A stretch of DNA of 64,000 bases from Acidimicrobiia bacterium (lineage in GTDB: Bacteria; Actinomycetota; Acidimicrobiia; Acidimicrobiales; JANYDT01). The position numbers were made by a program, and so were the translations under genes. Positions 40,759 to 53,132 of the stretch are shown here, piece after piece. The DNA is taken from NCBI GenBank assembly GCA_043720595.1, contig JAYSSK010000069.1, positions 35,480-99,479 of the forward strand, in the 5' to 3' direction. Within the stretch, counting starts at the first letter, position 1. Every line of letters begins with the position of its first letter. The notes beneath the pieces were generated by a model. The model ran no database searches and was not told the origin of the DNA. It saw only the letters and a list, made by a program, of their open reading frames with translations.

Positions 40759-43659
40759 CTATGGGATGTAGCCGTTGATGTCAACCACAACATGAGTTGT
40801 GGCCGAGGAATACAGGCAGACCTTGCCACTCGCGCCCAAACGGGCCATCGCGGCGTTGGAAATGGTGTCACCTGAGTTGAAGTTGATGTTGGATGCCAGT
40901 GGCAGGGCTGTCCCGCACGGATAGATCGTGACGAATCCGGCACTGCTTGGTTGGGTAACAGCGAGGTTGAGCGTCACTGCGTAGGCGTTTGCCGGAATCG
41001 CGTTGCGGCCTCCGACGGTCAGCTCCAGAGTTGTTCCGCCAACCAATAGTCCGCCGCCGGCCTGTTGTCCATCTGCGGTGAATTGTCCTGGGCGGGTGTC
41101 GAGGAACCGTGCGGGCACCTGGCCGGTGTAGGGCGAAGTTGATGGGTAGTAGCCATTGGCGTCGACCACGATGTGAGTCTGGGCCGATGAATAGACACAG
41201 ATTTTTCCGGCGGTTCCCAGGCGGGCTGCCACCGAGTTTGCGATCGTCTGGCCGGCGACGAAGTTCAGGTTCGAAGCCAACGGCAGCGGAGAGCCGCAGG
41301 GGTAGACCGTCACGAAACCGGCAGTTGTCGGCTCGGTGACTGCGATGTTGAGTGCAACCGCGTTGGGGGTGGCCGAAATGCCACCTCGGTTAGCGATGGT
41401 GAGTTCCGTGGTGAACCCCGCCGGCCGGATGCCTATGCCGGCAAATTGGCCGTCGATGGTGAACTGGCCGGCGCGCGTGTCCATGAGGCGTGCCGGAGTT
41501 GTTGAGGTGAAGAAAGGTACAGATCTCGAGTACGCGGACGCATCGACGACGACGTGGGTAGTGGCCGAGGCGTAGATGCACGTCTTGCCTCCGGCTCCGA
41601 CCCCAGCTGGGACAGAGGCGGCGATGGTCATCCCGGCAGAGAAGTTGACGTTCGACGATGTGGGAAGCGTCGTTCCGCACGGGAACAGGGTGAGAAATCC
41701 AGCAGCTGCTGGCTGGGTGACGGCCACGTTCAGCCACACGGTGCTGGCATCGGCTGGGATGCCTGCCCGGCCGATCAGTTGGAGTTGCGTAGTGGTGCCA
41801 GCCTGCAACAGGCCGGTACCTGCCATCTGCGTATCTACGGTCTGTTCTCCTGGGCGGGAGTCCATGAGACGAGCAGGGCTAAAGGCCACAAAGGGCGAAA
41901 CTGGAGGCGGCGGAGTTGTGGTTGTGGTTGTTGTGGTGCTGGTTGTTGTGGTGCTGGTTGTTGTGGCTGTGCTGGTGCCGGTGTCGAGTTCAAGGAGGGT
42001 GATGGATGCTGGGGGGAAGCTGCGGTTGTAGCTGGTTGCGCCGCCGCGGTTGGTGGTGGTGCCGGGTGCGTCGGAGAAGTCGTTGTTCGGGACGACTTTG
42101 CCGTTGTAGGTGGGGAGTGTGTCGTTGATGTTGGTGCCGGCGAAGGTGTCGGCATATTCGCTGAGGATGGTTTTGCCGTCGATGCTGATGGTGGCGGTTT
42201 TGGCTGTGTTGGTCTTGTTGATGACCATGAGGGTGGTGTTGCCGTTTTTTTGGCCGGCGTAGATGGAGAGGTCTGTGCTGGCGTTAAAGGTGGTGGCGAC
42301 ACCTTTGATGGTGGTGCCGAATCGTTTCCAGAGGGCCATGGCGTAGTAGGTGGGGTACCGGTAGGCGTCTTGGTAGTTGGCGTCTTTGAAGCCCATGAGT
42401 CCGAACTCGTTACCGAATGAGTAGTCGTAGTACATGGTGAATTGGTTCGAGCCGATGAATCGGTCGTTGAGGCCCATCTGGCCGATGGAGTCCCCGATCA
42501 TCATTGCGTTCATGATTTGGTTGAGACGCATACCAGTTTGTTCTTGCCAGCCTTCGGAGGTCAGCCCGTACTCCGACATCAACACCGGAGTTTTACGCGT
42601 GATTCCTGCATTTGCTTCAAGGACGGAGAGCTGCTGGTCGAGCTCGGGGAGCTTGGTTTCAGGAAAAGCAAGGATGGTGGCGTTGCCGGCCGGTGTGTTT
42701 GGTGGCGGGCTGTACTGGTAGTAGGTGTGAACGATGAGGAAATCGATATCGGTGCCGGCCCGGTTGAACAGGGGCTGCATCCACGGATTGGCTGTGTTCA
42801 GTTCACCCTGAGTTCCAGGTATGCCGACCCTGATGGTGGGGTCGATGGTCTTGAGGAGTGTTTTGGTTTCTGCGTACCCGTTCCGGCGGGTTGCACCAGT
42901 ACCGATGCCTTCGTAGAACTCGACGGAGTTGCACGTCCAGACTGTTTCCCACCCGAAATCCAGACAACCAGCCAGACCCTTACCGCCCATGGTCTCGTTA
43001 CCGAACTCCCACGTCTTGATACCCATTGGTGCAACAACACCAGCATCAACGCGCTTCTGAGCCCAGAACCCAACCGTCTTCCAATCGACACCCAACTGAT
43101 CAACACCAATCACCCGGGTATCAGTCACCGTGCCATTGGAAAACGCCAACAACGCAGCGTTTTCTTTCATCGTGGCATTCGCATTCAGCGTGATCACCAA
43201 CTGATCGGTGCCCATACTGTTGGACCACTTGAAAAACTCTGACGTACGAATCAACGGATCAGTCGTCAAATTACGTTTCGCAGTCGGGTAACACGGCGTG
43301 CCATAGGTAACCGCCCCAGGCGTTGCAGACAACTCACACGACGCCCAACCCCAATCCTGTGCTGCAATACCACCCGGGAACCGCATGAACTCCGTCGCCT
43401 GGCTACCACGCGACGCCAACTGGGCATTCAAGTAATACGGATGCAAGAAGAACGACGCATTCGTACCCCACTTCATCGGACCAAAATCACGAAACGCACG
43501 ACCATCCACCCTGATGGTCCCATCAACCGCCGCCTGCGCAGAGCCGACGCCGGATCCGACGATTGAACCAAGCGCCGCAGCAGCGGCAAGCATTGACAAA
43601 ACCGTCCGTTTCCGGAGACGGGCTAGCGGACGTTTGGTCGACGAGGACGTCGGTGTCAT
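40759..43659 (-). CDS. Secreted clan GH-A-like glycoside hydrolase with Thr-rich linker and three tandem C-terminal ~110-aa repeat domains
   Basis: ORF trimmed to MTPTSSSTKRPLARLRKRTVLSMLAAAAALG..AQA, with AAGGAG upstream. KTWEFGNETMGG and VLMSEYGL are candidate acid/base and nucleophile Glu motifs. Linker TTTSTTTTSTTTTTTTTPPPP. Three copies of ARLMDxRxG...GF(L/V)T(L/V/I)(F/Y)PCG...SN(V/L/I)NF...VVD(A/I)xxY. Confidence 0.7.
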   Translation of the reverse strand: MTPTSSSTKRPLARLRKRTVLSMLAAAAALGSIVGSGVGSAQAAVDGTIRVDGRAFRDFGPMKWGTNASFFLHPYYLNAQLASRGSQATEFMRFPGGIAAQDWGWASCELSATPGAVTYGTPCYPTAKRNLTTDPLIRTSEFFKWSNSMGTDQLVITLNANATMKENAALLAFSNGTVTDTRVIGVDQLGVDWKTVGFWAQKRVDAGVVAPMGIKTWEFGNETMGGKGLAGCLDFGWETVWTCNSVEFYEGIGTGATRRNGYAETKTLLKTIDPTIRVGIPGTQGELNTANPWMQPLFNRAGTDIDFLIVHTYYQYSPPPNTPAGNATILAFPETKLPELDQQLSVLEANAGITRKTPVLMSEYGLTSEGWQEQTGMRLNQIMNAMMIGDSIGQMGLNDRFIGSNQFTMYYDYSFGNEFGLMGFKDANYQDAYRYPTYYAMALWKRFGTTIKGVATTFNASTDLSIYAGQKNGNTTLMVINKTNTAKTATISIDGKTILSEYADTFAGTNINDTLPTYNGKVVPNNDFSDAPGTTTNRGGATSYNRSFPPASITLLELDTGTSTATTTSTTTTSTTTTTTTTPPPPVSPFVAFSPARLMDSRPGEQTVDTQMAGTGLLQAGTTTQLQLIGRAGIPADASTVWLNVAVTQPAAAGFLTLFPCGTTLPTSSNVNFSAGMTIAASVPAGVGAGGKTCIYASATTHVVVDASAYSRSVPFFTSTTPARLMDTRAGQFTIDGQFAGIGIRPAGFTTELTIANRGGISATPNAVALNIAVTEPTTAGFVTVYPCGSPLPLASNLNFVAGQTIANSVAARLGTAGKICVYSSAQTHIVVDANGYYPSTSPYTGQVPARFLDTRPGQFTADGQQAGGGLLVGGTTLELTVGGRNAIPANAYAVTLNLAVTQPSSAGFVTIYPCGTALPLASNINFNSGDTISNAAMARLGASGKVCLYSSATTHVVVDINGYIP

Positions 43660-44006
43660 TCTTGGTGCTCCTTGGAGAGAGAAATCAGAAGTGAACGCGA
43701 GTTCATGCGCCACCGAGAGTAGCAGCGCACTTCTGTAATCCAATGTCCTTGACGTCACATGGGCACGAATTCACCAACCATGGTGACCTCGTTCGCTGGC
43801 GGTCAACAGAAGTGCCCTCACCTGGGAAAATATCCCCTACCCGGCTGCGACAAAGGCGGCCTGCACATCGGTGCGGCGACGCTTTGGAGGACGTTGCGAC
43901 AGCTCTGCAGAACGTGAGTTCGCTCTGCTCGTTCGCCACCGTCCGTGCGATCTCACCTCGGACATAGTGACCGGGACGACGGTGTGACAGCCGTAGTCTT
44001 TGTTGT

Positions 44007-44504
44007 GTGGAGTGCTTCAGGAGATTTCGGCTGAGGGTCCGTGCATTTCGACGCCTTCCGCGTCGTTCGAAACTGGTCTTCGTTCCCGCTCTCGTTCTCA
44101 CCCCCATCTTCCGAACTGTCGCTCGGCGTCGAGGAATCAAGTCGGCAACTGCACTCGCTCGCCGACTGGGAGGGCCCTTGGCCGAGCCGACGACCCCGTC
44201 AGCTCAGACCGAGGTCGATTCCGTCCTCCCGATTGCTCGCCAGGTGGTGTCGGGCGTTCGCGCTGCAGCAGGCGCGCTTCCCGCCGAGTTGGTGTGCCTT
44301 CCTCGATCCTTGACGTCATGGACTCTCCTCAACCGGATGGGAGTCGCTGCAACGCTACGCATCGGCATGGACGCGTCGACCGCTCATCAAACGGCACATG
44401 CCTGGATCGATGTCATGGGCGAGTCCGTCGGGGAAGCCCCTAGCCACATCGCCCAGATGGCCGAGTTCGCCGACCCGATTCTTGGAAGAAAGCCTGCGGA
44501 ATGA
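44007..44504 (+). CDS. Lasso peptide biosynthesis B2 protein (transglutaminase-like leader peptidase)
   Basis: GTG start. ELVCLPRSLTSWTLLNRMG...TAHAWIDVMGE gives Cys and His in the McjB-type arrangement. ATGA overlap with the next gene. Confidence 0.8.
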   Translation: MECFRRFRLRVRAFRRLPRRSKLVFVPALVLTPIFRTVARRRGIKSATALARRLGGPLAEPTTPSAQTEVDSVLPIARQVVSGVRAAAGALPAELVCLPRSLTSWTLLNRMGVAATLRIGMDASTAHQTAHAWIDVMGESVGEAPSHIAQMAEFADPILGRKPAE

Positions 44505-45460
44505 CTCAATCGACGGCGGTGTCCTTGCACGGTTTCGTTGTCGCCAGCCCATGGACACTTTCGGCCCGCCCTTCGCAGCATCCAGCAGAAGTCCGATGCA
44601 CCGTCGAACGGAGCGTCGCTCCCCAGCTCCCTGATTCAGCATCGGGCAGCCTGGTCGCCCAGTCTGTGGACGAAAACGGGATCGCGACCATGCAGGTGCG
44701 CTCCACGGCAACCGGGCACCTCATCAATTGGCCCGGGTTCATGAGTGCCTCGCTCAACATCGTCCCCGACGGATCTGTTCGAACCCTGCATCTGATGGCC
44801 CACACGACCGGCGCGCTTCGGTTGGCTTCTGTGTTGGTTTCACCTGCAGTAGGGGTTGTCGCGATGCTCAGTGGTGCCCTTGTGCTTCACGCAACAGCGG
44901 TGAACATCGATGGCCGCGCAGTACTGCTTGTAGCAGATCGAGGAGGCGGCAAGTCGTCGGTTGCTGCGCTTCTCGGCAGCGCGGGTATCCCCCTCCTTGC
45001 CGAAGACGTATGCGCAGTATCGATAGGCGTTGATGGTATTCCGGTTGTGCACGCTGGAGTTCAAGAGCTTCGTTTGCGGCCAACAACACCCTGGCTTGCG
45101 GTCCTCCCCGGGCTTGTCCGCTCCGAACGGCATTCAGACGGTCGAATTGTCGTGCGTCCGCCAACGACGCCACGGCATTGCGTTCCTGTGGGGGCTGTGA
45201 TGGTGGTTCGCCTGTCACGCTCCGCCGACGAGGTATTGGTCACCCGGTTCACGGGCGTGCAGGCAGCCAGCGTGTTGATAAAGGCCCAAAGGTGCCCCCC
45301 TACTGCTGGAAGTCCTCTCACGAGATCTGCCTTCGAAGGATCGGCAGCTTGCGCAGATGCACTGCCCGTGTCAGCGCTCACTGTCCCGTGGGCCGAACGT
45401 CGGCGCAATCGGCAACTCGGCGTGGAACTCAGGGATGCCTTGAAGGCGGCAAGCGTCTGA
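44501..45460 (+). CDS. HPr kinase-like (Hpr_kinase_C domain) putative lasso-precursor kinase, paralog 1
   Basis: LVLHATAVNIDGRAVLLVADRGGGKSSVAALLGSAGIPLLAEDV has the HprK C-terminal P-loop architecture. Confidence 0.7.
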   Translation: MTQSTAVSLHGFVVASPWTLSARPSQHPAEVRCTVERSVAPQLPDSASGSLVAQSVDENGIATMQVRSTATGHLINWPGFMSASLNIVPDGSVRTLHLMAHTTGALRLASVLVSPAVGVVAMLSGALVLHATAVNIDGRAVLLVADRGGGKSSVAALLGSAGIPLLAEDVCAVSIGVDGIPVVHAGVQELRLRPTTPWLAVLPGLVRSERHSDGRIVVRPPTTPRHCVPVGAVMVVRLSRSADEVLVTRFTGVQAASVLIKAQRCPPTAGSPLTRSAFEGSAACADALPVSALTVPWAERRRNRQLGVELRDALKAASV

Positions 45461-45470
45461 ATCCTTACGG

Positions 45471-45755
45471 TCAGTTGGGGGCGTTTGATGGGGCTGCTAT
45501 TCCGCGGCGTGCCAACTCGGCGAGAAATCGGCCGATGTCGGTGCGCGCCGTATCTGCGTTCACGTCGAATCTGTCGGTCACGACACCGATCAATTCGTTC
45601 ATGTCTGCACCACGGGAGAGTGACTCCCATACGACGATTCCTGACCCGTCAATAGACAGGTAGGTGGAATTGCGAAGGTCGAAGACGATGACGGACTCGT
45701 CGACTCGCTCCCATGTAATCAAGTCGGTCTGTAGCCGCCAGACTTGTTCAAACAT
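45471..45755 (-). CDS. PqqD-family RiPP recognition element (lasso B1 protein)
   Basis: 94 aa. VIVFDLRNSTYLSIDGSGIVVWESLSRGADMNELIGVVTDRFDV...ARTDIGRFLAELARRGI is a classic PqqD pattern. Confidence 0.8.
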   Translation of the reverse strand: MFEQVWRLQTDLITWERVDESVIVFDLRNSTYLSIDGSGIVVWESLSRGADMNELIGVVTDRFDVNADTARTDIGRFLAELARRGIAAPSNAPN

Positions 45756-47003
45756 TCGAACAGCCTACGCGTCGGCGAGAATGAGCATGGAATGCCCTTG
45801 CCGTTGAACCCCAAAGCCAATATTCTTCCCGCCGACCAGTCCACCATCCGGTGGAATTTTCCTCTGTTCACTGACGTGTCGACCCTTGGCAAGCTGGTTC
45901 GTCCGCCAGAGTTGGACCCCAGCACGCGCGCCCGAAACAAGGCCAGGGGCTCTTTGTTCGAAGTACTCGTCGACCAGATTGCATTGCGACTAGATGACCG
46001 GCCGGTTTATGTCCAGTTTTCTGGCGGGTGTGACTCATCGCTTGTTTTGTCAGCAGCGGTGGTTGCCTGCGATCGAACCGACCACGATGCTCCGGTCCCA
46101 CTGACCTTCCGCTACCCGCTGCTTCCGGAGACCGATGAGAACGATTTCCAGAGCCTGATGCTCGAATTCCTCAAGCTCGGGCCTGGGCACCGCGAAATAG
46201 TCACCACCGAGTTCGACCTCCTTGGCCCTGCAGCACAGAGGGGACTCAACGAGCTGGGTGTCGTGTGGCCGGCGCCTGTGGTTGCTTGCTCGGATGTCTT
46301 CCGATCGATCCCCCCGGGGTTGGTTCTCTCCGGCGAGGGCGGCGATGAAGTGATGGGGCCTCGTCGTATCGCCGGGGTCTTTCGAGCGGCGGAAATGCTC
46401 AGACGGGGACAGCTCAAGGCTACCGCAGGAAACTTGGCGCATGCGGTCGGGCCCTCGATTGTGAGGCGGAGGGCAATGCTGAAAGGTGGAGGAATGGTTG
46501 GGGAATGGATCGAGGCCGAAGAGGCGAAACGATTCGTTCGGCGAATCGGTGAGACGTATGGCCGGGAACCACTCCGAAGCAGCCGTTACGCCTCGTACTA
46601 TGCACAACTTTCAAGTTCAACGCTTGCGCTCCACCAAATCACAGCAATCATGCATTGGGCTGGCCAGCAGTATTGCGCGCCGTTGATGGACCCGAGCTTC
46701 GTGGCTGCGGTGAACGACCTCACTCCGGACTATGACCTCCGGAATCGTCATCGTGTGCTCCGGCGTCACTTCGCGGAGCATCTTCCAGTGGAGATACTCC
46801 GGCGGACGGACAAGCGCTACATGCAGTCCGTCTACTTCAACGACCATGCGCGCGAATTTGCCCGTCACTGGGACGGGCAAATCGAAGACGACGCTATAAA
46901 CGGCAAGCTACTCAAGAACCATTGGTTGACTGCTAATCCGCACGAAGTCTGGTCGCAGACCTTCTTGCTGCTGCAGGCAGTTTGGTTGGCCTCGACGCGT
47001 TGA
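45744..47003 (+). CDS. Asparagine-synthetase-like ATP-dependent lasso cyclase (C protein), lacking the N-terminal domain
   Basis: PP-loop VYVQFSGGCDSSLVL lies only about 90 aa into the ORF. LVLSGEGGDEVMG follows downstream. The true start is probably downstream of 45755 (for example Met at 45792), because 45744 overlaps the divergent pqqD start. Confidence 0.7.
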   Translation: MFKHSNSLRVGENEHGMPLPLNPKANILPADQSTIRWNFPLFTDVSTLGKLVRPPELDPSTRARNKARGSLFEVLVDQIALRLDDRPVYVQFSGGCDSSLVLSAAVVACDRTDHDAPVPLTFRYPLLPETDENDFQSLMLEFLKLGPGHREIVTTEFDLLGPAAQRGLNELGVVWPAPVVACSDVFRSIPPGLVLSGEGGDEVMGPRRIAGVFRAAEMLRRGQLKATAGNLAHAVGPSIVRRRAMLKGGGMVGEWIEAEEAKRFVRRIGETYGREPLRSSRYASYYAQLSSSTLALHQITAIMHWAGQQYCAPLMDPSFVAAVNDLTPDYDLRNRHRVLRRHFAEHLPVEILRRTDKRYMQSVYFNDHAREFARHWDGQIEDDAINGKLLKNHWLTANPHEVWSQTFLLLQAVWLASTR

Positions 47004-47007
47004 GCTA

Positions 47008-47142
47008 TCAGGAGCTGGTAAGCGGCTGGCCTGCTGGGATGGCCTGGTCGGCGAAGGACTTCGGGCTAGCGGCGAGGGTGGTCTGAGCGACCGAGCCGAT
47101 TTCTTGAACGGCTGGGGCGGTGTATGGCTGCTTGGTTGACAT
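47008..47142 (-). CDS. Predicted lasso peptide precursor (44 aa): leader MSTKQPYTAPAVQEIGSVAQTTL / core AASPKSFADQAIPAGQPLTSS
   Basis: These are the last 44 codons of track ORF 47008..47628. ATG at 47142. The leader fits YxxPx(L/V)x3Gx5Tx with Thr at -2. The core has Ala1 and Asp9 (ring-forming pair as in paeninodin) and a C-terminal Ser. It is convergent with the cyclase, 4 bp apart. Confidence 0.7.
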   Translation of the reverse strand: MSTKQPYTAPAVQEIGSVAQTTLAASPKSFADQAIPAGQPLTSS

Positions 47143-47202
47143 ACCGGTATTCTGAAGGGCACAACGGGACAACGGTAATCGTCTGTTTCCCGTACGGGAG
47201 TA

Positions 47203-48213
47203 GTGGTGGATTACGTGAGTCGGTCGATCTGGGTGCACGGACTCCGGGTTCGGGCTGACTTCGGACTTCCCTGTCTGCGAGCCGCTGACGCGGTTCCAGA
47301 CTTGACGTTGCTCACCACGATCCATAAGTCTGGCCGGCCGGAGCCCGAGACCGTCCGAAGGCCGGAAGACCACGATCAACGAAGTGTCGGTGCTACCCGA
47401 CCGCTCTATGCCGACCGCAACATGCAGATCGCAGGAACCATCGATGGTCCAAGTGTTGTGGTTCGGTATGGCGCCGTCGGGGTGCAGTTCACCCTTGACG
47501 TTTCGCAGTCGCCAATCAGGGTCATCGCGGCTGCCGACCGGGATGAATGGCTTGAGTGGATCCCGGTTCTCGCTCAAGGAGCGATGCTCGCGGCCGCCGT
47601 GGAACTGCAAGGTCGAGCAGCGTTTCATGCGAACACAGTCGATGTTGATGGCGAGGGTGTGTTGATCGGGGGAGTATCCGGTGCTGGCAAGACCGTCGCA
47701 ACAGCCCTACTCATTCTCGCGGGCAACAGATTGGTGGCTGATGACGTCAGCGTGGTCGACCCCGAACTTCCTGTCCGACCTGGCCTGCTCGAGATGCGGA
47801 TCCGCACTTGGGAGAACGCTGTCGGCCAGATGCTGGTCGATGAACTCTCCAAAATGCCTGGAGCGACACAACGTTCAACGATTGATTGGCGTGTCGCAGT
47901 CCGCTCCGGCGGCGATCCGGACTACGAGGGGGTCATGCCCGCCCGCATCGTGTTGACGGTGGTCGACGACGACATCGACCGCCCACAACTTCACACCGTG
48001 TCCGGCTCCGAGGCGCTCACGGCCCTTCTTCCAGTGAAGCGGCTGGTTGGGTGGACGGATCCGGAACGGCTCCGGGCAGACTTTGGGCATTGCGCAGACC
48101 TTGCGGGGCGAATCCCGGTTCAACGCTTGGTGCTCCCCAAGCTCTCGAGCAACGATTCGGGCTGCATCCATCGCGTCGCGGACCAACTCGACCAACTCTT
48201 CAGGCACGCCTGA
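47203..48213 (+). CDS. HPr kinase-like (Hpr_kinase_C domain) putative kinase, paralog 2
   Basis: GTG start. AAFHANTVDVDGEGVLIGGVSGAGKTVATALLILAGNRLVADDV. Confidence 0.7.
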   Translation: MVDYVSRSIWVHGLRVRADFGLPCLRAADAVPDLTLLTTIHKSGRPEPETVRRPEDHDQRSVGATRPLYADRNMQIAGTIDGPSVVVRYGAVGVQFTLDVSQSPIRVIAAADRDEWLEWIPVLAQGAMLAAAVELQGRAAFHANTVDVDGEGVLIGGVSGAGKTVATALLILAGNRLVADDVSVVDPELPVRPGLLEMRIRTWENAVGQMLVDELSKMPGATQRSTIDWRVAVRSGGDPDYEGVMPARIVLTVVDDDIDRPQLHTVSGSEALTALLPVKRLVGWTDPERLRADFGHCADLAGRIPVQRLVLPKLSSNDSGCIHRVADQLDQLFRHA

Positions 48214-48279
48214 ATAAACCGAAAGTTCTTCGGAAAGCGCCTCTTCCTGAGTTGCCCGAATGTGCGCAAGCAACCAGGG

Positions 48280-48954
48280 TTACCCTGACGCGGTGCTTTC
48301 CGTCCAGCGCTGCACCGCCTGGTGGCGGTTTCGGACCCCCAATTTTCGATACAGGACGCGCTGCAGCGCCTCGACTGTTTTCGTTGTCACGTCGATTTCG
48401 GCGGCGATCGATTTGTTCCCTGCGCCCGTGCGCATGAGGTTGAGCAACTGCAATTCTCGGGGTGTCACCTGTGGCAACGAACCTTCGACGGAACTCTGCG
48501 ACACGGACAGAGCATCGAGCAATTGGGTGACGCTCCATCCGGGCACGCCGTTCATCACCGCAACGACTGCTTCGCGCACGGCCGAAAATCCGTGCGCTGG
48601 AGCCACGAGCCACATCACACCCTTTCGCAGCGCCTCGGATAGTTCGTTGGGTAGCTGTGATGCGGCGGTCACCAGCACGATGGGGTGACCCCTACGTACC
48701 ATTCGCAACGAAACGCCGAACCCGCTGTCCGCGTCGTCCAACAGCACGGTAATGCTGGCCTCCGTTGTTTTCGCAGAGGTGGCTCGCGTCGAGTGAGTTT
48801 CACCTGGCGTTCGGCGACGGGAGCCTTCGGGGACGACGATTGATCCAACACCCGGAAGGTCAGCTTCGTGCAGCAGCGTCGCCACGCCGAGTGCAATGAG
48901 TGGATTCGCACCGACAACAACCAGAGTTCTGCCGTTTACCGAGACCCTGGTCAT
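48280..48954 (-). CDS. LuxR-family transcriptional regulator with atypical receiver-like N-terminal domain
   Basis: C-terminal HTH VTPRELQLLNLMRTGAGNKSIAAEIDVTTKTVEALQRVLYRKLGV. Confidence 0.7.
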   Translation of the reverse strand: MTRVSVNGRTLVVVGANPLIALGVATLLHEADLPGVGSIVVPEGSRRRTPGETHSTRATSAKTTEASITVLLDDADSGFGVSLRMVRRGHPIVLVTAASQLPNELSEALRKGVMWLVAPAHGFSAVREAVVAVMNGVPGWSVTQLLDALSVSQSSVEGSLPQVTPRELQLLNLMRTGAGNKSIAAEIDVTTKTVEALQRVLYRKLGVRNRHQAVQRWTESTASG

Positions 48955-49592
48955 CGCATTCTTTCCCCGTCTGCAAGCATCGACGTTTTAGCCCGGCCGA
49001 CAGGTTCCCGGACGCGACGTTGTTCGCTACCCGAGATAGTTGCGGAGTTCAGAAGTCCTCTGGCACGGGCTGTCTCGACGGCCTGACCGGCAGTGTGGAC
49101 ACCCCACTTTTTGTAGAGCCGTCGTCGGTGGGTGGTCACAGTCGACTGACCGATTCCGAGCTCTCGTGCGAGCTCGACGTTGGACTTACCAGCTGCAATG
49201 CCGCGCACTATTGCGAGTTCGCGTTCCGTGGGTGGCATGACGGCTATTAACGGGGCGAGCCAAGGCTGCTTCGGCAAAACAGCCGAGGTGGTTGTCCCAC
49301 AGGCACTCTGGCTGGGCGTCGAAAGCTGTTTGGCCAGCCAAAGCAAAGGCTTAGTGGCCGGTGCCCGGTCCAGGTCGACGGGCGGAACCTGAGGGTGACG
49401 CAAATGAACTGCGGAAAGTGTTGCGCCGCGGCCCACGAGCACGTCGGGCTCGGAACCGCCTAGGAGGGATTCACATGATCCAACTGTCCACTCGCTAGCG
49501 ACCTGTATAGCAATGGTTGCACCGGCCTCGCGTAACACGGCGTGAATCGCCTCGTTCCACAGTGCAGTGGATTCGACCAGAGCGACCTTCAC
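48951..49592 (-). CDS. LuxR-family transcriptional regulator with degenerate receiver-like N-terminal domain
   Basis: PTERELAIVRGIAAGKSNVELARELGIGQSTVTTHRRRLYKKWGV. N-terminal KVALVESTALW...PDVLVGRG lacks the usual acidic pocket and phospho-Asp. 4-nt overlap with the downstream LuxR gene. Confidence 0.7.
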   Translation of the reverse strand: MKVALVESTALWNEAIHAVLREAGATIAIQVASEWTVGSCESLLGGSEPDVLVGRGATLSAVHLRHPQVPPVDLDRAPATKPLLWLAKQLSTPSQSACGTTTSAVLPKQPWLAPLIAVMPPTERELAIVRGIAAGKSNVELARELGIGQSTVTTHRRRLYKKWGVHTAGQAVETARARGLLNSATISGSEQRRVREPVGRAKTSMLADGERMR

Positions 49593-50808
49593 ACCCGGAG
49601 TTTTGCAGCTGTTGTGGACCCGTGAACGCGTTCACCACTACCTGCCCGATACATTTGAGATCGTGGAAGGTCCGATTGGCGCGTTGGTTGACCTCGCGCT
49701 CGAGCGTGGCCGCGATCACGGCGAGGGCTGGCTCGGGAGATTCGGACCGTCTTTGTTCGAAGCGGCTCACGAACATCGGCTCGTACCGATGCTCTGGGAC
49801 AAGTTGGCTGCGGTTCCGGGAGCGGACCGGCAACACATTGCTGCGTCAGACCTGCATGCCCGTCACCGATACCGAATCGCCGAAGAGGAACTTGTCCGGG
49901 TAGCCGCAATTGCAGCTTCTGTCGATGTGGAGATAGGGGTCGTTAAGGGAGTTATCAACGCCGAACGCTGGTTTGCACCGGACCCCTCTGTTCGCCCTTG
50001 TTCCGACATCGACTTGTTTCTCGATCCAGCCGATCCTGGCGGCACAGATCGCCTCCTTCGAGCACTGGAACCGGACAATGCCCTTTGCGGCCATGCGGGC
50101 CACCTCATGTCAATCGGGGTCCTACCCGACATCCCGGTCACCGGAGGCCGGCTGCTCGTGGAGATCCACGCAAACCCGATGACGCTGCGGCTGAGTCACA
50201 GCCGGCTGGATGCCGTTTGGCAATCTACGGTTCCGACCAAGACTCGCGCAGGGGCGTCCGTTCGATGCCTCGACACGACAACCGCATTGATACACGCGCT
50301 TATTAATTCGGCAAAAGATAACCACGCATACCTCCTGCAGGTGCTCGAAGTGGGGCGCGCACTTCAGGATCCTTTGGTCGATTGGGATCGATTCATGCAG
50401 ATTGTTCGCGACAATCGTTGGGACGCCGTGTTCGACGATGCCATCAGGTATGTGTGCGGCCTGCTGGGGCAGACTCCCCCGCCCGTCAAGCTGCAGCCAG
50501 AACCGCTAGCAGCATGGACCCTGCGCCGTCTCGCGCCTCAACAAGACCGGTTGGGTGGTCGGGTGTCGTGGAGGCGCGCACAACGGTTCTGCAAACTTGA
50601 CCTCGTTGTGCCCGGGACACGGACTCGGTCCGTCCGCGGGATTGTCACCCGTACCTTTTCGCCGGATGAGTACATAACTGCCTTCGCTCCCGATCTCACC
50701 GGACCGTATCCGCTACGTGCGGCACGGTTCTGGATGCGCCGCCAGCAATACGTCAAAGGCACTCGGTCGTCGCTAGCTGGCCCTCTCGCGTTGAAGCACA
50801 AGGGATGA
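49567..50808 (+). CDS. Nucleotidyltransferase-family protein (NTP_transf_5-like), putative lasso tailoring enzyme
   Basis: RPCSDIDLFLDPADPGG (GS/DxD-type NTase motif) within about 400 aa. The start is probably downstream of 49592, because the ORF 5' end overlaps the divergent LuxR gene. ATGA coupling to the ABC gene. Confidence 0.6.
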   Translation: MDSTRATFTPGVLQLLWTRERVHHYLPDTFEIVEGPIGALVDLALERGRDHGEGWLGRFGPSLFEAAHEHRLVPMLWDKLAAVPGADRQHIAASDLHARHRYRIAEEELVRVAAIAASVDVEIGVVKGVINAERWFAPDPSVRPCSDIDLFLDPADPGGTDRLLRALEPDNALCGHAGHLMSIGVLPDIPVTGGRLLVEIHANPMTLRLSHSRLDAVWQSTVPTKTRAGASVRCLDTTTALIHALINSAKDNHAYLLQVLEVGRALQDPLVDWDRFMQIVRDNRWDAVFDDAIRYVCGLLGQTPPPVKLQPEPLAAWTLRRLAPQQDRLGGRVSWRRAQRFCKLDLVVPGTRTRSVRGIVTRTFSPDEYITAFAPDLTGPYPLRAARFWMRRQQYVKGTRSSLAGPLALKHKG

Positions 50809-52646
50809 AGCCCATTCTGTCTGTTTGGCGATTGTTCGCCGGTCTTGGGACGAACCTGCGTCAGACCTACCGATTGGTGTGGGACGGTGCGCGTCCGCAG
50901 GTGCTCGTTGGCTTGGCGCTTGACCTTGTTTTGACACTCGCCACCATTGGTCAACTCGCGTTGGTGAAACGGTTGCTTTCTCAACTTCGAATCGGGGCGA
51001 GCGGCGGACAGTTCACGCGGCCGTTGATGCTCACAATTGTCGTGAGTGGCCTGCTCGCCGCGTCGGTCGCAGCAGTGGGCGCTGTCCAGATGTTCATCAG
51101 ACCGCTCGCAGTGGAGATGCTGACGCGTCACACATACGCGAAAGTGCTCCAGCGGCTGCGGACTGCGCCGCTTGAGCACTTCGACGAGCCGACATTTCAT
51201 GACAGGCTCGAACGGTTGTCGAAGGACGGTGTCGAACGGCCAGCGGAACTGGTGTGGGCTGCCTCGGGTTTGCTGGCGAGCATCATCGGGCTGGTCGGAA
51301 TTGGAGCCTTCGTTTCGACGATTCTTCCGGAGATCATGCCAATGGTTTTGATCGGTGCGGTACCGCTGCTCATTTCCAGTCGCGTTGATGCGCACGCTTA
51401 CTATCGGTATATAGAGGGTGTCGGAGCGGTGAGACGACGGACCCAGTATCTCCGAGACGTGCTGACGGAACGCAAGATGGCTCCTGAGCTGCAGGGTTAC
51501 GGGTTGCGACCAACCTTCGAAGCTCGTCACGAGGCACTGCAGCAGGAGCGGATCGATCGACTGGCCGCGATGGTCAAGGCCCGCTCCATCCGTTCCATCT
51601 TCACCGCGGCCGCCACCGTCATCGTCACGATTGCGGCGATGTCGCTCATTGCCTGGAAAGCAACCACAGGTGCACTGACGATCGATGAAGCGGTGGCAGT
51701 GGTCCTCGGTGTACAACAACTCACCTCTCGGATGTCCACCATGCGGTCCGCTCTTTCTGTGGTGCAGCAGAACCGTCTGTTTCTTGCCGACTTGTTTGGG
51801 TTCCTTTCCGACGAGCCAAAAGTATCGGCTCAGGACCCGGCCGGCCACGGTGACGCGGAATCCGAAAGGCCTCTCATGCCGACCGGTTCAATCGATCTGG
51901 ACGGCGTTGGTTTCCGCTACCCAGCTCAGACCCGAGATGCAGTCCAAGACGTCAGCCTTCACATCAACTCCGGGCAGGTCGTTGCCCTGGTCGGCGAAAA
52001 TGGTTCGGGAAAAACCACACTCGCGAAATTGATTGCCGGCCTCTATTCGCCCACGGCTGGCGCAGTATCGGTCGGCGGGGTCAATTTGGCTCGGCTCAGT
52101 GGCCCGAACCGCACGCGCCATGCCGTGACGGTCTTCCAGGACTTTGCGAGGTTTGCGCTGAGCGCACGTGACAACATCGCGCTGGGCGATGTGTCGAAGG
52201 GCGACGATCCTCGGCGCGTTCAGTCATCGATTGAAACTGCCGGACTCACTTCGGTGATTGATGCGCTCCCCCACGGCCTCGATACCATCTTGGCTGCCCA
52301 GTTCGACGGAGGTGTCGACCTCTCCTCAGGGCAATGGCAGCGGTTCGCTTTGGCCCGAGCGTTCTACCGGGATGCGCCCGTGCTGCTGTTGGACGAGCCG
52401 ACCGCCGCGTTAGACGCGCGGTCTGAATACCTGTTGTTCGAACGAGTGCGCGAAGTGGCCCGCGGACGTACGGTGATTCTGATTTCGCATCGGCTCGCCT
52501 CGGTGCGTGACGTAGACCGAATCATCGTGATGAAGAGCGGACGGATCGTCGAGACCGGTACCCATCACGAACTCATCGCAGCGGGCGGCCTATATGCCGA
52601 GCTGACCGACCTGCAGGAGCGAACCAGTTTGGCCAACCTCGATTGA
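50805..52646 (+). CDS. ABC transporter, fused permease/ATPase (McjD-like lasso peptide exporter)
   Basis: N-terminal 6-TM domain. LVGENGSGKTTLAKL (Walker A), LSSGQWQRFALARAF (signature), VLLLDEPTAALD (Walker B). Confidence 0.85.
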   Translation: MKPILSVWRLFAGLGTNLRQTYRLVWDGARPQVLVGLALDLVLTLATIGQLALVKRLLSQLRIGASGGQFTRPLMLTIVVSGLLAASVAAVGAVQMFIRPLAVEMLTRHTYAKVLQRLRTAPLEHFDEPTFHDRLERLSKDGVERPAELVWAASGLLASIIGLVGIGAFVSTILPEIMPMVLIGAVPLLISSRVDAHAYYRYIEGVGAVRRRTQYLRDVLTERKMAPELQGYGLRPTFEARHEALQQERIDRLAAMVKARSIRSIFTAAATVIVTIAAMSLIAWKATTGALTIDEAVAVVLGVQQLTSRMSTMRSALSVVQQNRLFLADLFGFLSDEPKVSAQDPAGHGDAESERPLMPTGSIDLDGVGFRYPAQTRDAVQDVSLHINSGQVVALVGENGSGKTTLAKLIAGLYSPTAGAVSVGGVNLARLSGPNRTRHAVTVFQDFARFALSARDNIALGDVSKGDDPRRVQSSIETAGLTSVIDALPHGLDTILAAQFDGGVDLSSGQWQRFALARAFYRDAPVLLLDEPTAALDARSEYLLFERVREVARGRTVILISHRLASVRDVDRIIVMKSGRIVETGTHHELIAAGGLYAELTDLQERTSLANLD

Positions 52647-52688
52647 CCATTGGTCGCCTTCGGGTATGACTGGTGGCGGAGCGGTGGC

Positions 52689-53132
52689 TTAGCGAGCGGT
52701 GGAGTCTGCTGTGGCTCGGTAGTTGGTTGACGCGTCGCCTGGTTGCGGGCGATCTTCGTACCGTTCGCCCGCGAGGACGGCTCGCATCGCCTTGCGGACG
52801 CGAATTGGGTCCAGCGGCTTGATGAGCCAGCCGTCGGCGTCGCACTTCTGCGCCAGGTAGGTGTCGGCGTTGCGATCGAGCAGCAGGATGATTGGGACCT
52901 CTGGCGACCGGCCACCCGAAGCCTCGAGGCGCAGGTCGTAGGTGACCGCAATGGCGCCCATGTCGGAGATCTGCATGTCGAGGATGACCAGGTCGGGTTC
53001 TTCGGTGGCAACCACGTCACGCACGGCCCGCCCGGCACTGACGCTGCGGATGACGGTGTCACCCCCGGGGATGGCAGCACGGATCTCGTCGTGGACCCAG
53101 GGGGCGTCGCTGCAGATCAAGACGGTGGGCAT
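52689..53132 (-). CDS. Stand-alone response-regulator receiver domain protein
   Basis: ORF trimmed to MPTVLICSDAPWVHDEI. PDLVILDMQISDMGAI (phospho-acceptor Asp) and GWLIKPLD (conserved Lys). Confidence 0.75.
   Translation of the reverse strand: MPTVLICSDAPWVHDEIRAAIPGGDTVIRSVSAGRAVRDVVATEEPDLVILDMQISDMGAIAVTYDLRLEASGGRSPEVPIILLLDRNADTYLAQKCDADGWLIKPLDPIRVRKAMRAVLAGERYEDRPQPGDASTNYRATADSTAR

Follow-up and report, generated by a model that had tools for sequence, protein, structure and literature searches.

A probable paeninodin-like lasso precursor gene in a kinase-containing cluster from Acidimicrobiia

Introduction

The 64-kb stretch of DNA analysed here (the window) comes from an uncultured lineage of Acidimicrobiia and carries a lasso peptide cluster that, going by its annotated genes, would pass for an orphan. 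Lasso peptides are small bacterial natural products in which a ring is formed and the chain is knotted. An earlier note on this DNA had pointed to the last 44 codons of a much longer reading frame. We conclude with high confidence that this minus-strand interval, 47142..47008 (called gene A), is the structural gene of a paeninodin-like lasso peptide made by the route proposed below, and would thus supply the cluster with its precursor. Gene A is new and unannotated; the system type to which it belongs is the known kinase-tailored ‘paeninodin-like’ lasso and is no new system. The open reading frame (ORF), its coding conservation, its motifs, the surrounding gene set and the family-wide pattern are established.

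A small ORF with a lasso-type leader and core

Gene A begins at ATG 47142–47140 and stops at TGA 47010–47008 on the minus strand, exactly as the earlier note had read it, and occupies the 200-bp gap separating two plus-strand genes (Table 1). Its frame forms the 3′ end of a 206-aa ORF (47008..47628). Translation yields MSTKQPYTAPAVQEIGSVAQTTLAASPKSFADQAIPAGQPLTSS, which divides into the leader MSTKQPYTAPAVQEIGSVAQTTL and the core AASPKSFADQAIPAGQPLTSS; the text of the leader is YTAPAVQEIGSVAQTT. Leader residues Y7-x2-P10-x-V12-x3-G16-x5-T22-L23 fit the pattern YxxPx(L/V)x3Gx5Tx, so that the two features expected of a lasso precursor, YxxPx(L/V/I) and a penultimate Thr, are both present. The motif Y..P.[LVIM]...G.....T. 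was searched in the six-frame translation of the whole 64 kb and gave two matches, one of which crosses a stop codon and the other of which is gene A. Shuffled sequences predict 0.15 stop-free matches per 64 kb, compared with the one observed. This search bears out the previous assignment of residues 7–23 to the lasso leader pattern with Thr at −2, and it revealed no better precursor candidate elsewhere in the window.

The NCBIfam model NF033521 (‘lasso RiPP family leader peptide-containing protein’) also aligns with residues 7–23 (profile positions 1–17; E = 0.0047). The score of 16.9 bits lies below the cutoff of 19 bits, which is an annotation threshold and no biochemical criterion. Six of seven related precursors tested exceed this cutoff (19.7–29.6 bits) and the seventh scores 18.5 bits; gene A falls short because AQTT replaces the AELT of its relatives. 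We rejected T21 as the −2 residue, since this choice shifts Asp to core position 10 and breaks the register with all relatives. The 23-aa leader and 21-aa core first suggested in the note keep the invariant Thr(−2) and Asp9 in register across every relative.

The core starts with Ala1, carries Asp9 as its sole acidic residue and terminates in Ser (...TSS), all of which can be read directly in the sequence. It therefore has the small first residue and the Asp or Glu at position 7, 8 or 9 that characterize lasso cores, as well as the C-terminal Ser of paeninodin-like peptides. The paeninodin core that the note had quoted is correct, AGPGTSTPDAFQPDPDEDVHYDS (PMC12427821), and the pseudomycoidin core, AGPGKRLVDQVFEDEDEQGALHHS, likewise shares Ala1, Asp9 and a C-terminal Ser with paeninodin and gene A (PMC12427821). 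By analogy with these peptides, Ala1 and Asp9 are predicted to form the isopeptide ring, and core Ser21 (Ser44 of the precursor) is the predicted phosphorylation site.

Table 1 Features of the cluster and of gene A, in order of position in the window
Feature	Position	Strand	Evidence
B2 leader peptidase, transglutaminase-like; start codon uncertain	44007..44504	+	PF13471 (1.3e-15); NF033537 lasso_biosyn_B2 (58.4 bits, cutoff 33)
Kinase-1, HPr-kinase-like paralogue with altered motif	44501..45460	+	Weak HprK matches; motif
B1, PqqD-type leader-recognition protein (RRE)	45471..45755	-	PF05402 (1.5e-11); lasso PqqD models
Cyclase C, Asn-synthase homologue, 403 aa, PP-loop SGGCDSS	45792..47003	+	PF00733 (2.9e-16)
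Precursor gene A, 44 codons + TGA	47008..47142	-	Sequence, motif, NF033521, orthologues, dN/dS
Core peptide AASPKSFADQAIPAGQPLTSS, 21 residues	47011..47073	-	Alignment, family statistics, literature comparison
Leader peptide, residues 1–23 (Y7xxP10xV12, G16, Thr22 at −2)	47074..47142	-	Model and alignment
CAGAAT, −10-like hexamer ending 6 nt before the ATG	47149..47154	-	Comparison of cAnAnT
Palindrome TCCCGTACGGGA, putative regulator binding site	47188..47199		Window match and relatives
Kinase-2, HPr-kinase-like, divergent from gene A	47203..48213	+	PF07475 (34.9 bits, cutoff 33.3)
Two GerE/LuxR-family regulators (48280–48954 and 48951–49592)	48280..49592	-	PF00196; conserved in L002–L006
PsmN-like uncharacterized nucleotidyltransferase (NTP_transf_5), N	49567..50808	+	PF14907 (1.8e-20)
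MsbA-like ABC exporter, D	50805..52646	+	PF00005; Pfam and NCBIfam

Gene A is conserved as a coding sequence

Gene callers skipped gene A both in the source genome and in its closest relative (L002). Moreover, the exact peptides of gene A and L002 are absent among 15 billion collected proteins, which indicates that they are uncalled by any pipeline, and no Shine–Dalgarno sequence lies 5′ of the gene A ATG. Such observations would suit an ORF that arose by chance in GC-rich DNA between genes and yields no product, but we regard this explanation as extremely improbable in view of the low expectation for the leader motif given above and of the pattern of conservation. The closest relatives (L002–L006) encode cyclases 45–74% identical to that of the window, with L002 at 74%; L008 and L009, recovered by the genome scan, are the L002 and L004 clusters met again. 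A conserved small ORF, which the earlier note had named as a check on its reading, is found in all of these, each having one to three on the minus strand in the same slot and orientation as gene A, even where cyclase identity is only 45–54%. Residues Y7, P10, E14, G16, T22 and D32 (core Asp9) are invariant in an alignment of ten related precursors.

Furthermore, the gene A sequences of the window and L002 differ at 25 nucleotides, 22 of which are third codon positions. Of the resulting codon changes, 19 are synonymous and 3 are non-synonymous (dN/dS 0.02). The two alternative frames over gene A are about 50% identical with L002, where a stop interrupts one of the two. In addition, the L003 orthologue was called by JGI, as a 43-aa hypothetical protein. 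Searches aimed directly at the peptide gave little: a word-indexed homologue search with the 44-aa query found no match, a metagenome scan with the precursor alignment gave 29 pattern matches of which none was confirmed by tblastn, and a second scan of metagenomes, for degenerate DNA encoding PYTAPxxQEIGS, gave no match.

Two longer ORFs that include this region were rejected as real genes. The frame of an 84-aa ORF (46908..47162) is unconserved (about 50% identity), and so is that of the 206-aa ORF, whose L002 version is reduced to 44 aa by a stop codon. This stop lies just 5′ of the ATG, so that no start codon precedes the ATG in the L002 ORF, which is exactly 44 aa long. The upstream part of the 206-aa ORF is antisense to the kinase-2 gene, which has an HPr-kinase Pfam match, and these 160 codons, which the note took to be non-coding, are cut off by the L002 stop.

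In several relatives the precursor gene is present in two or three tandem copies whose cores differ (L004 7166–7693, L005 7223–7702, L006 2876–3375 and 6822–6965), and a second cyclase gene in L006 is accompanied by its own precursor. This arrangement suggests that the subfamily diversifies through precursor duplication.

Expression signals and gene order

In nine precursor genes, a cAnAnT hexamer ends 6–7 nt 5′ of the start codon. Its position, together with the missing Shine–Dalgarno sequence, points to a leaderless transcript, and gene A is probably transcribed in this form from its own promoter. Between positions 46700 and 47400, a scan for sigma-70 consensus promoters returned 0 sites, and terminator-like sites near gene A occur on the plus strand only, with none for gene A itself. 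The RNA downstream of the gene A stop shows no terminator hairpin on folding (z = 0.57), and no Rfam family was matched in the region 43000–53000.

The palindrome TCCCGTACGGGA is centred 51.5 nt upstream of the gene A ATG and ends 3 nt before the GTG of kinase-2. It occurs once in the 64 kb with 0.85 matches expected, so the pattern alone is no rarer than chance. The form CCCnTAnGGG recurs at nine of ten precursor genes (window and L002–L006), always 50.5–51.5 nt ahead of the start codon, where it is kept despite diverged spacers and also at second precursor copies away from kinase-2. We regard it as a putative binding site, for which the two GerE/LuxR regulators of the cluster are the candidates.

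The region 44007–52646 is arranged as seven transcription units on alternating strands: B2-K1 (+), B1 (−), C (+), A (−), K2 (+), R1-R2 (−) and N-D (+). A and C are convergent with their stop codons 4 nt apart, B1 and C are divergent with starts 36 bp apart, and L004 and L005 each have a second A copy that shares 29 nt with the 3′ end of C. This layout may permit regulation by antisense transcription or read-through, for instance if a transcript of A continued in antisense across C and on into B1. The cluster is directly preceded by a minus-strand gene (40759–43758) for a secreted-looking 999-aa protein, which has a linker rich in Thr and Pro and three repeats, each about 120 aa long (...FLDTRPG...GxxGKxCxYSSAxTHxVVDxxGY). 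It adjoins the cluster in both L001 and L002, and no Pfam match is on record for it.

A lasso cluster with a synthetase-only cyclase

The enzymes that define a lasso context, namely an RRE protein (B1), a B2 protease and an adjoining Asn-synthetase-like cyclase, are all encoded within 3.2 kb. [quoted passage not shown] The N gene is missing from the relatives L003, L005 and L006.

The cyclase C corresponds to only the synthetase half of AsnB, the N-terminal glutaminase-like domain being absent. In a profile search of the PDB, positions 46–191 of the C profile align with residues 201–356 of 1ct9; the profile was required, as a search with the single C sequence gave no match. Likewise, TIGR01536 matches C from model position 240 onward, and none of the curated lasso-cyclase models scores above its cutoff on C. 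The AlphaFold model of C is confident (pLDDT 91.6), and the known structures that it resembles most are those of TsnB9, beta-lactam synthetase and AsnB/ASNS. The family of C comprises at least 786 clusters at 50% identity (E ≤ 1e-30) of proteins of about 390 aa, and 149 of the top 150 clusters are 314–433 aa long. One member carries just the NCBI name ‘asparagine synthase-related protein’, which implies that annotation may under-call clusters with single-domain cyclases.

Kinases and the C-terminal serine

Homologues of C were traced to contigs carrying the same cluster, and a scan using one genome per species added 80 loci. All of these are from Actinomycetota bar one, an Acidobacteriota MAG, and the hosts include Acidimicrobiia MAGs, Isoptericola, Occultella, Nocardioides and Amycolatopsis, among others. 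The reviews consulted place phosphorylated lasso peptides in Firmicutes, Proteobacteria, Bradymonadales and several further groups and not in Actinomycetota, although other descriptions may exist (PMC9266682, PMC10368454, PMC8498205); the survey indicates that paeninodin-type clusters with a linked kinase occur widely in this phylum. An ORF with the leader motif lies near the cyclase gene in 79 of the 87 loci that encode the cyclase family of the window. Among the 85 distinct cores, Asp or Glu occupies position 9 in 74, and the first residue is Ala in 40 and Gly in 28 (68 with either). The C-terminal residue is Ser in 63 of these cores, compared with a Ser frequency of 9.8% inside them. A two-by-two test of kinase presence against C-terminal Ser gave p = 0.33 with only two kinase-less loci, and so has no power. 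By analogy with characterized systems and on the family-wide statistics, the TSS tail of gene A would be the kinase target.

Kinase-2 carries FHANTV...GVSGAGKT...ADDV and thus the full H / GxxGxGK(S/T) / DD motif, residues of which are required in BsfK as judged by mutagenesis (PMC10368454). The cluster therefore includes the HPr-kinase homologue with a catalytic motif that is expected of a paeninodin-like system. An exact protein look-up of kinase-2 returned no record because start codons differ. Kinase-1 deviates from the motif, with a P-loop of ADRGGGKS and AED in place of GxxGxGK(S/T) and DD, and A..GGGKS and ED also occur in its orthologues from L002–L006, L008 and L009. Maintenance of the altered motif across orthologues suggests that kinase-1 may be an altered-function enzyme or a non-catalytic partner.

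These features leave room for a model in which the precursor is real and the HPr-kinase-like proteins act elsewhere than, or not only on, the C-terminal Ser, or in which kinase-1 has no catalytic role and instead partners or scaffolds the cyclase, whose N-terminal domain is missing. Indeed, the target of BsfK is core Ser3 and not the C-terminus (PMC10368454), and the gene A core also has a Ser3. The cluster moreover holds two kinase paralogues, all kinase-1 orthologues have G-to-A and D-to-E changes at positions important in BsfK, and of the 44 non-redundant loci whose flanks are complete, 42 encode an HprK-like kinase beside the single-domain cyclase. We nevertheless judge this model unlikely. 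Ser3 is unconserved in the subfamily, whose other cores begin ASQNK, AQNV or SAAPK, whereas Ser stands among the last three residues in 79 of the 85 family cores and the catalytic motif of kinase-2 is complete. Modification of the C-terminal Ser remains our preferred reading, and it would agree with PadeK, ThcoK, SyanK and PsmK, which phosphorylate the C-terminal Ser of linear precursors (PMC9266682, PMC6993621).

Tail and topology

The tail following Asp9, QAIPAGQPLTSS (47011–47046), is devoid of F, W, Y, R, H and K; among the 85 cores, those of the window and L002 are the only ones with no such residue after the ring. Given that the tail offers no plug residue, a classical sterically locked lasso is doubtful, and from its sequence the stable threading of the gene A product appears uncertain. 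A precedent is pseudomycoidin, whose tail also has a weak plug or none and which, when unmodified, was isolated as an unthreaded branched cycle (PMC6993621). Its authors proposed that a phospho-hexose on the last Ser could be the lock (PMC6993621). By analogy, the gene A product may have a phospho-hexose lock of this kind, or may be a branched cycle. Since no bulky residue follows the ring, this core lends itself to asking whether a lasso can be locked by a phospho-sugar on its C-terminal Ser.

The same precedent and the plugless tail could be taken to mean that the peptide is processed without cyclization or threading, either to a linear (poly)phosphorylated product resembling the LPPs or to a product that is only branched-cyclic. 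[quoted passage not shown] However, these clusters have an SpI-type peptidase and no cyclase, whereas the window has B2 and C, the latter an Asn-synthase homologue, and offers no alternative substrate candidate for them. The LPP leader motif YxxPxVLxHQxIxFETxxS is absent from the gene A leader, no signal-peptidase Pfam match was found among the cluster ORFs submitted, and core Asp9 is invariant in the relatives. We therefore do not class the cluster with the LPPs, and processing without cyclization or threading seems to us quite improbable.

A more far-reaching version of our preferred reading, a kinase-tailored lasso, is that the Acidimicrobiia subfamily uses a distinct lasso route, in which a synthetase-only cyclase would operate with kinase-1 as a dedicated, catalytically altered partner, and the plugless tail would be kept in the ring by nothing but the phospho(-hexosyl) group placed on the last Ser by kinase-2 and N. 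We assign this idea a small but real chance. If it is correct, the distinct route would be the ‘third locking strategy’ suggested for pseudomycoidin.

A proposed biosynthetic route

We infer all of the enzymatic steps, the phosphorylation site and any threading of the tail by analogy with characterized clusters. In the proposed route, the 44-aa precursor would be expressed from its own promoter, probably under control through the upstream palindrome, and its YxxPxV leader would be bound by B1 (PqqD). An HPr-kinase-like enzyme, most likely kinase-2, would then transfer phosphate to C-terminal Ser44 of the linear precursor. This order follows that of paeninodin, ThcoA, SyanA and pseudomycoidin, in which phosphorylation precedes the action of B2 and C (PMC9266682, PMC6993621, PMC8498205). 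The PsmN-like nucleotidyltransferase may add hexose to the Ser phosphate, as PsmN attaches one or two hexoses to the C-terminal Ser phosphate in its own system (PMC6993621, PMC9266682, PMC8498205). B2 would cleave after Leu23, with Thr22 as the −2 residue, and C would close an isopeptide bond between the amine of Ala1 and the side chain of Asp9 to give a 9-residue ring and a 12-residue tail. The cyclized core, 18 Da lighter than the linear one, has a calculated M of 2025.017 ([M+H]+ 2026.024), and the calculated [M+H]+ values are 2105.990 with one phosphate, 2268.043 with phosphate and one hexose, and 2430.096 with phosphate and two hexoses. Finally, the product would be exported by the ABC transporter.

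Comparison with known systems

The lasso cluster of Bradymonas sediminis (BsfA/BsfK, PMC10368454) resembles that of the window in having K and N genes and the same kinase catalytic motif, and in that system B1 accelerates phosphorylation (PMC10368454). The precursors differ, as BsfA has Ile at −2, a C-terminal Asp and a phosphorylated Ser3, whereas gene A has Thr at −2 and a C-terminal Ser.

Paeninodin (PadeA, Paenibacillus dendritiformis; Zhu et al. 2016), in the accounts of PMC9266682 and PMC5067487, has Ala1, Asp9, a C-terminal Ser and split B1 and B2 proteins, as in the window, together with an HPr-kinase homologue that adds phosphate to the last Ser while the precursor is still linear. 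On the same accounts, the paeninodin tail is bulky (F11, H20 and Y21), whereas the gene A core has no bulky tail residues, and the pade cluster lists one kinase and no N gene, with C, A, K, B1, B2 and D on one strand.

Pseudomycoidin (PsmA, encoded by psm of Bacillus pseudomycoides, PMC6993621) shares with the gene A product the Ala1–Asp9 ring, a ‘DQ’ in which Gln directly follows the ring, and the C-terminal Ser. The psm cluster also matches the window in gene content, comprising C, A, an HprK-like kinase, B1, B2, a PsmN-type NTP transferase and an ABC exporter. Nevertheless, the two cores are unrelated except for A1, K5, D9, Q10 and the terminal Ser, and the hosts belong to different phyla, Bacillota for psm and Actinomycetota (Acidimicrobiia) for the window. 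The window further differs from psm in its two kinases, its two LuxR-type regulators and its strand-alternating genes, with A convergent with C, and possibly also in its synthetase-only cyclase.
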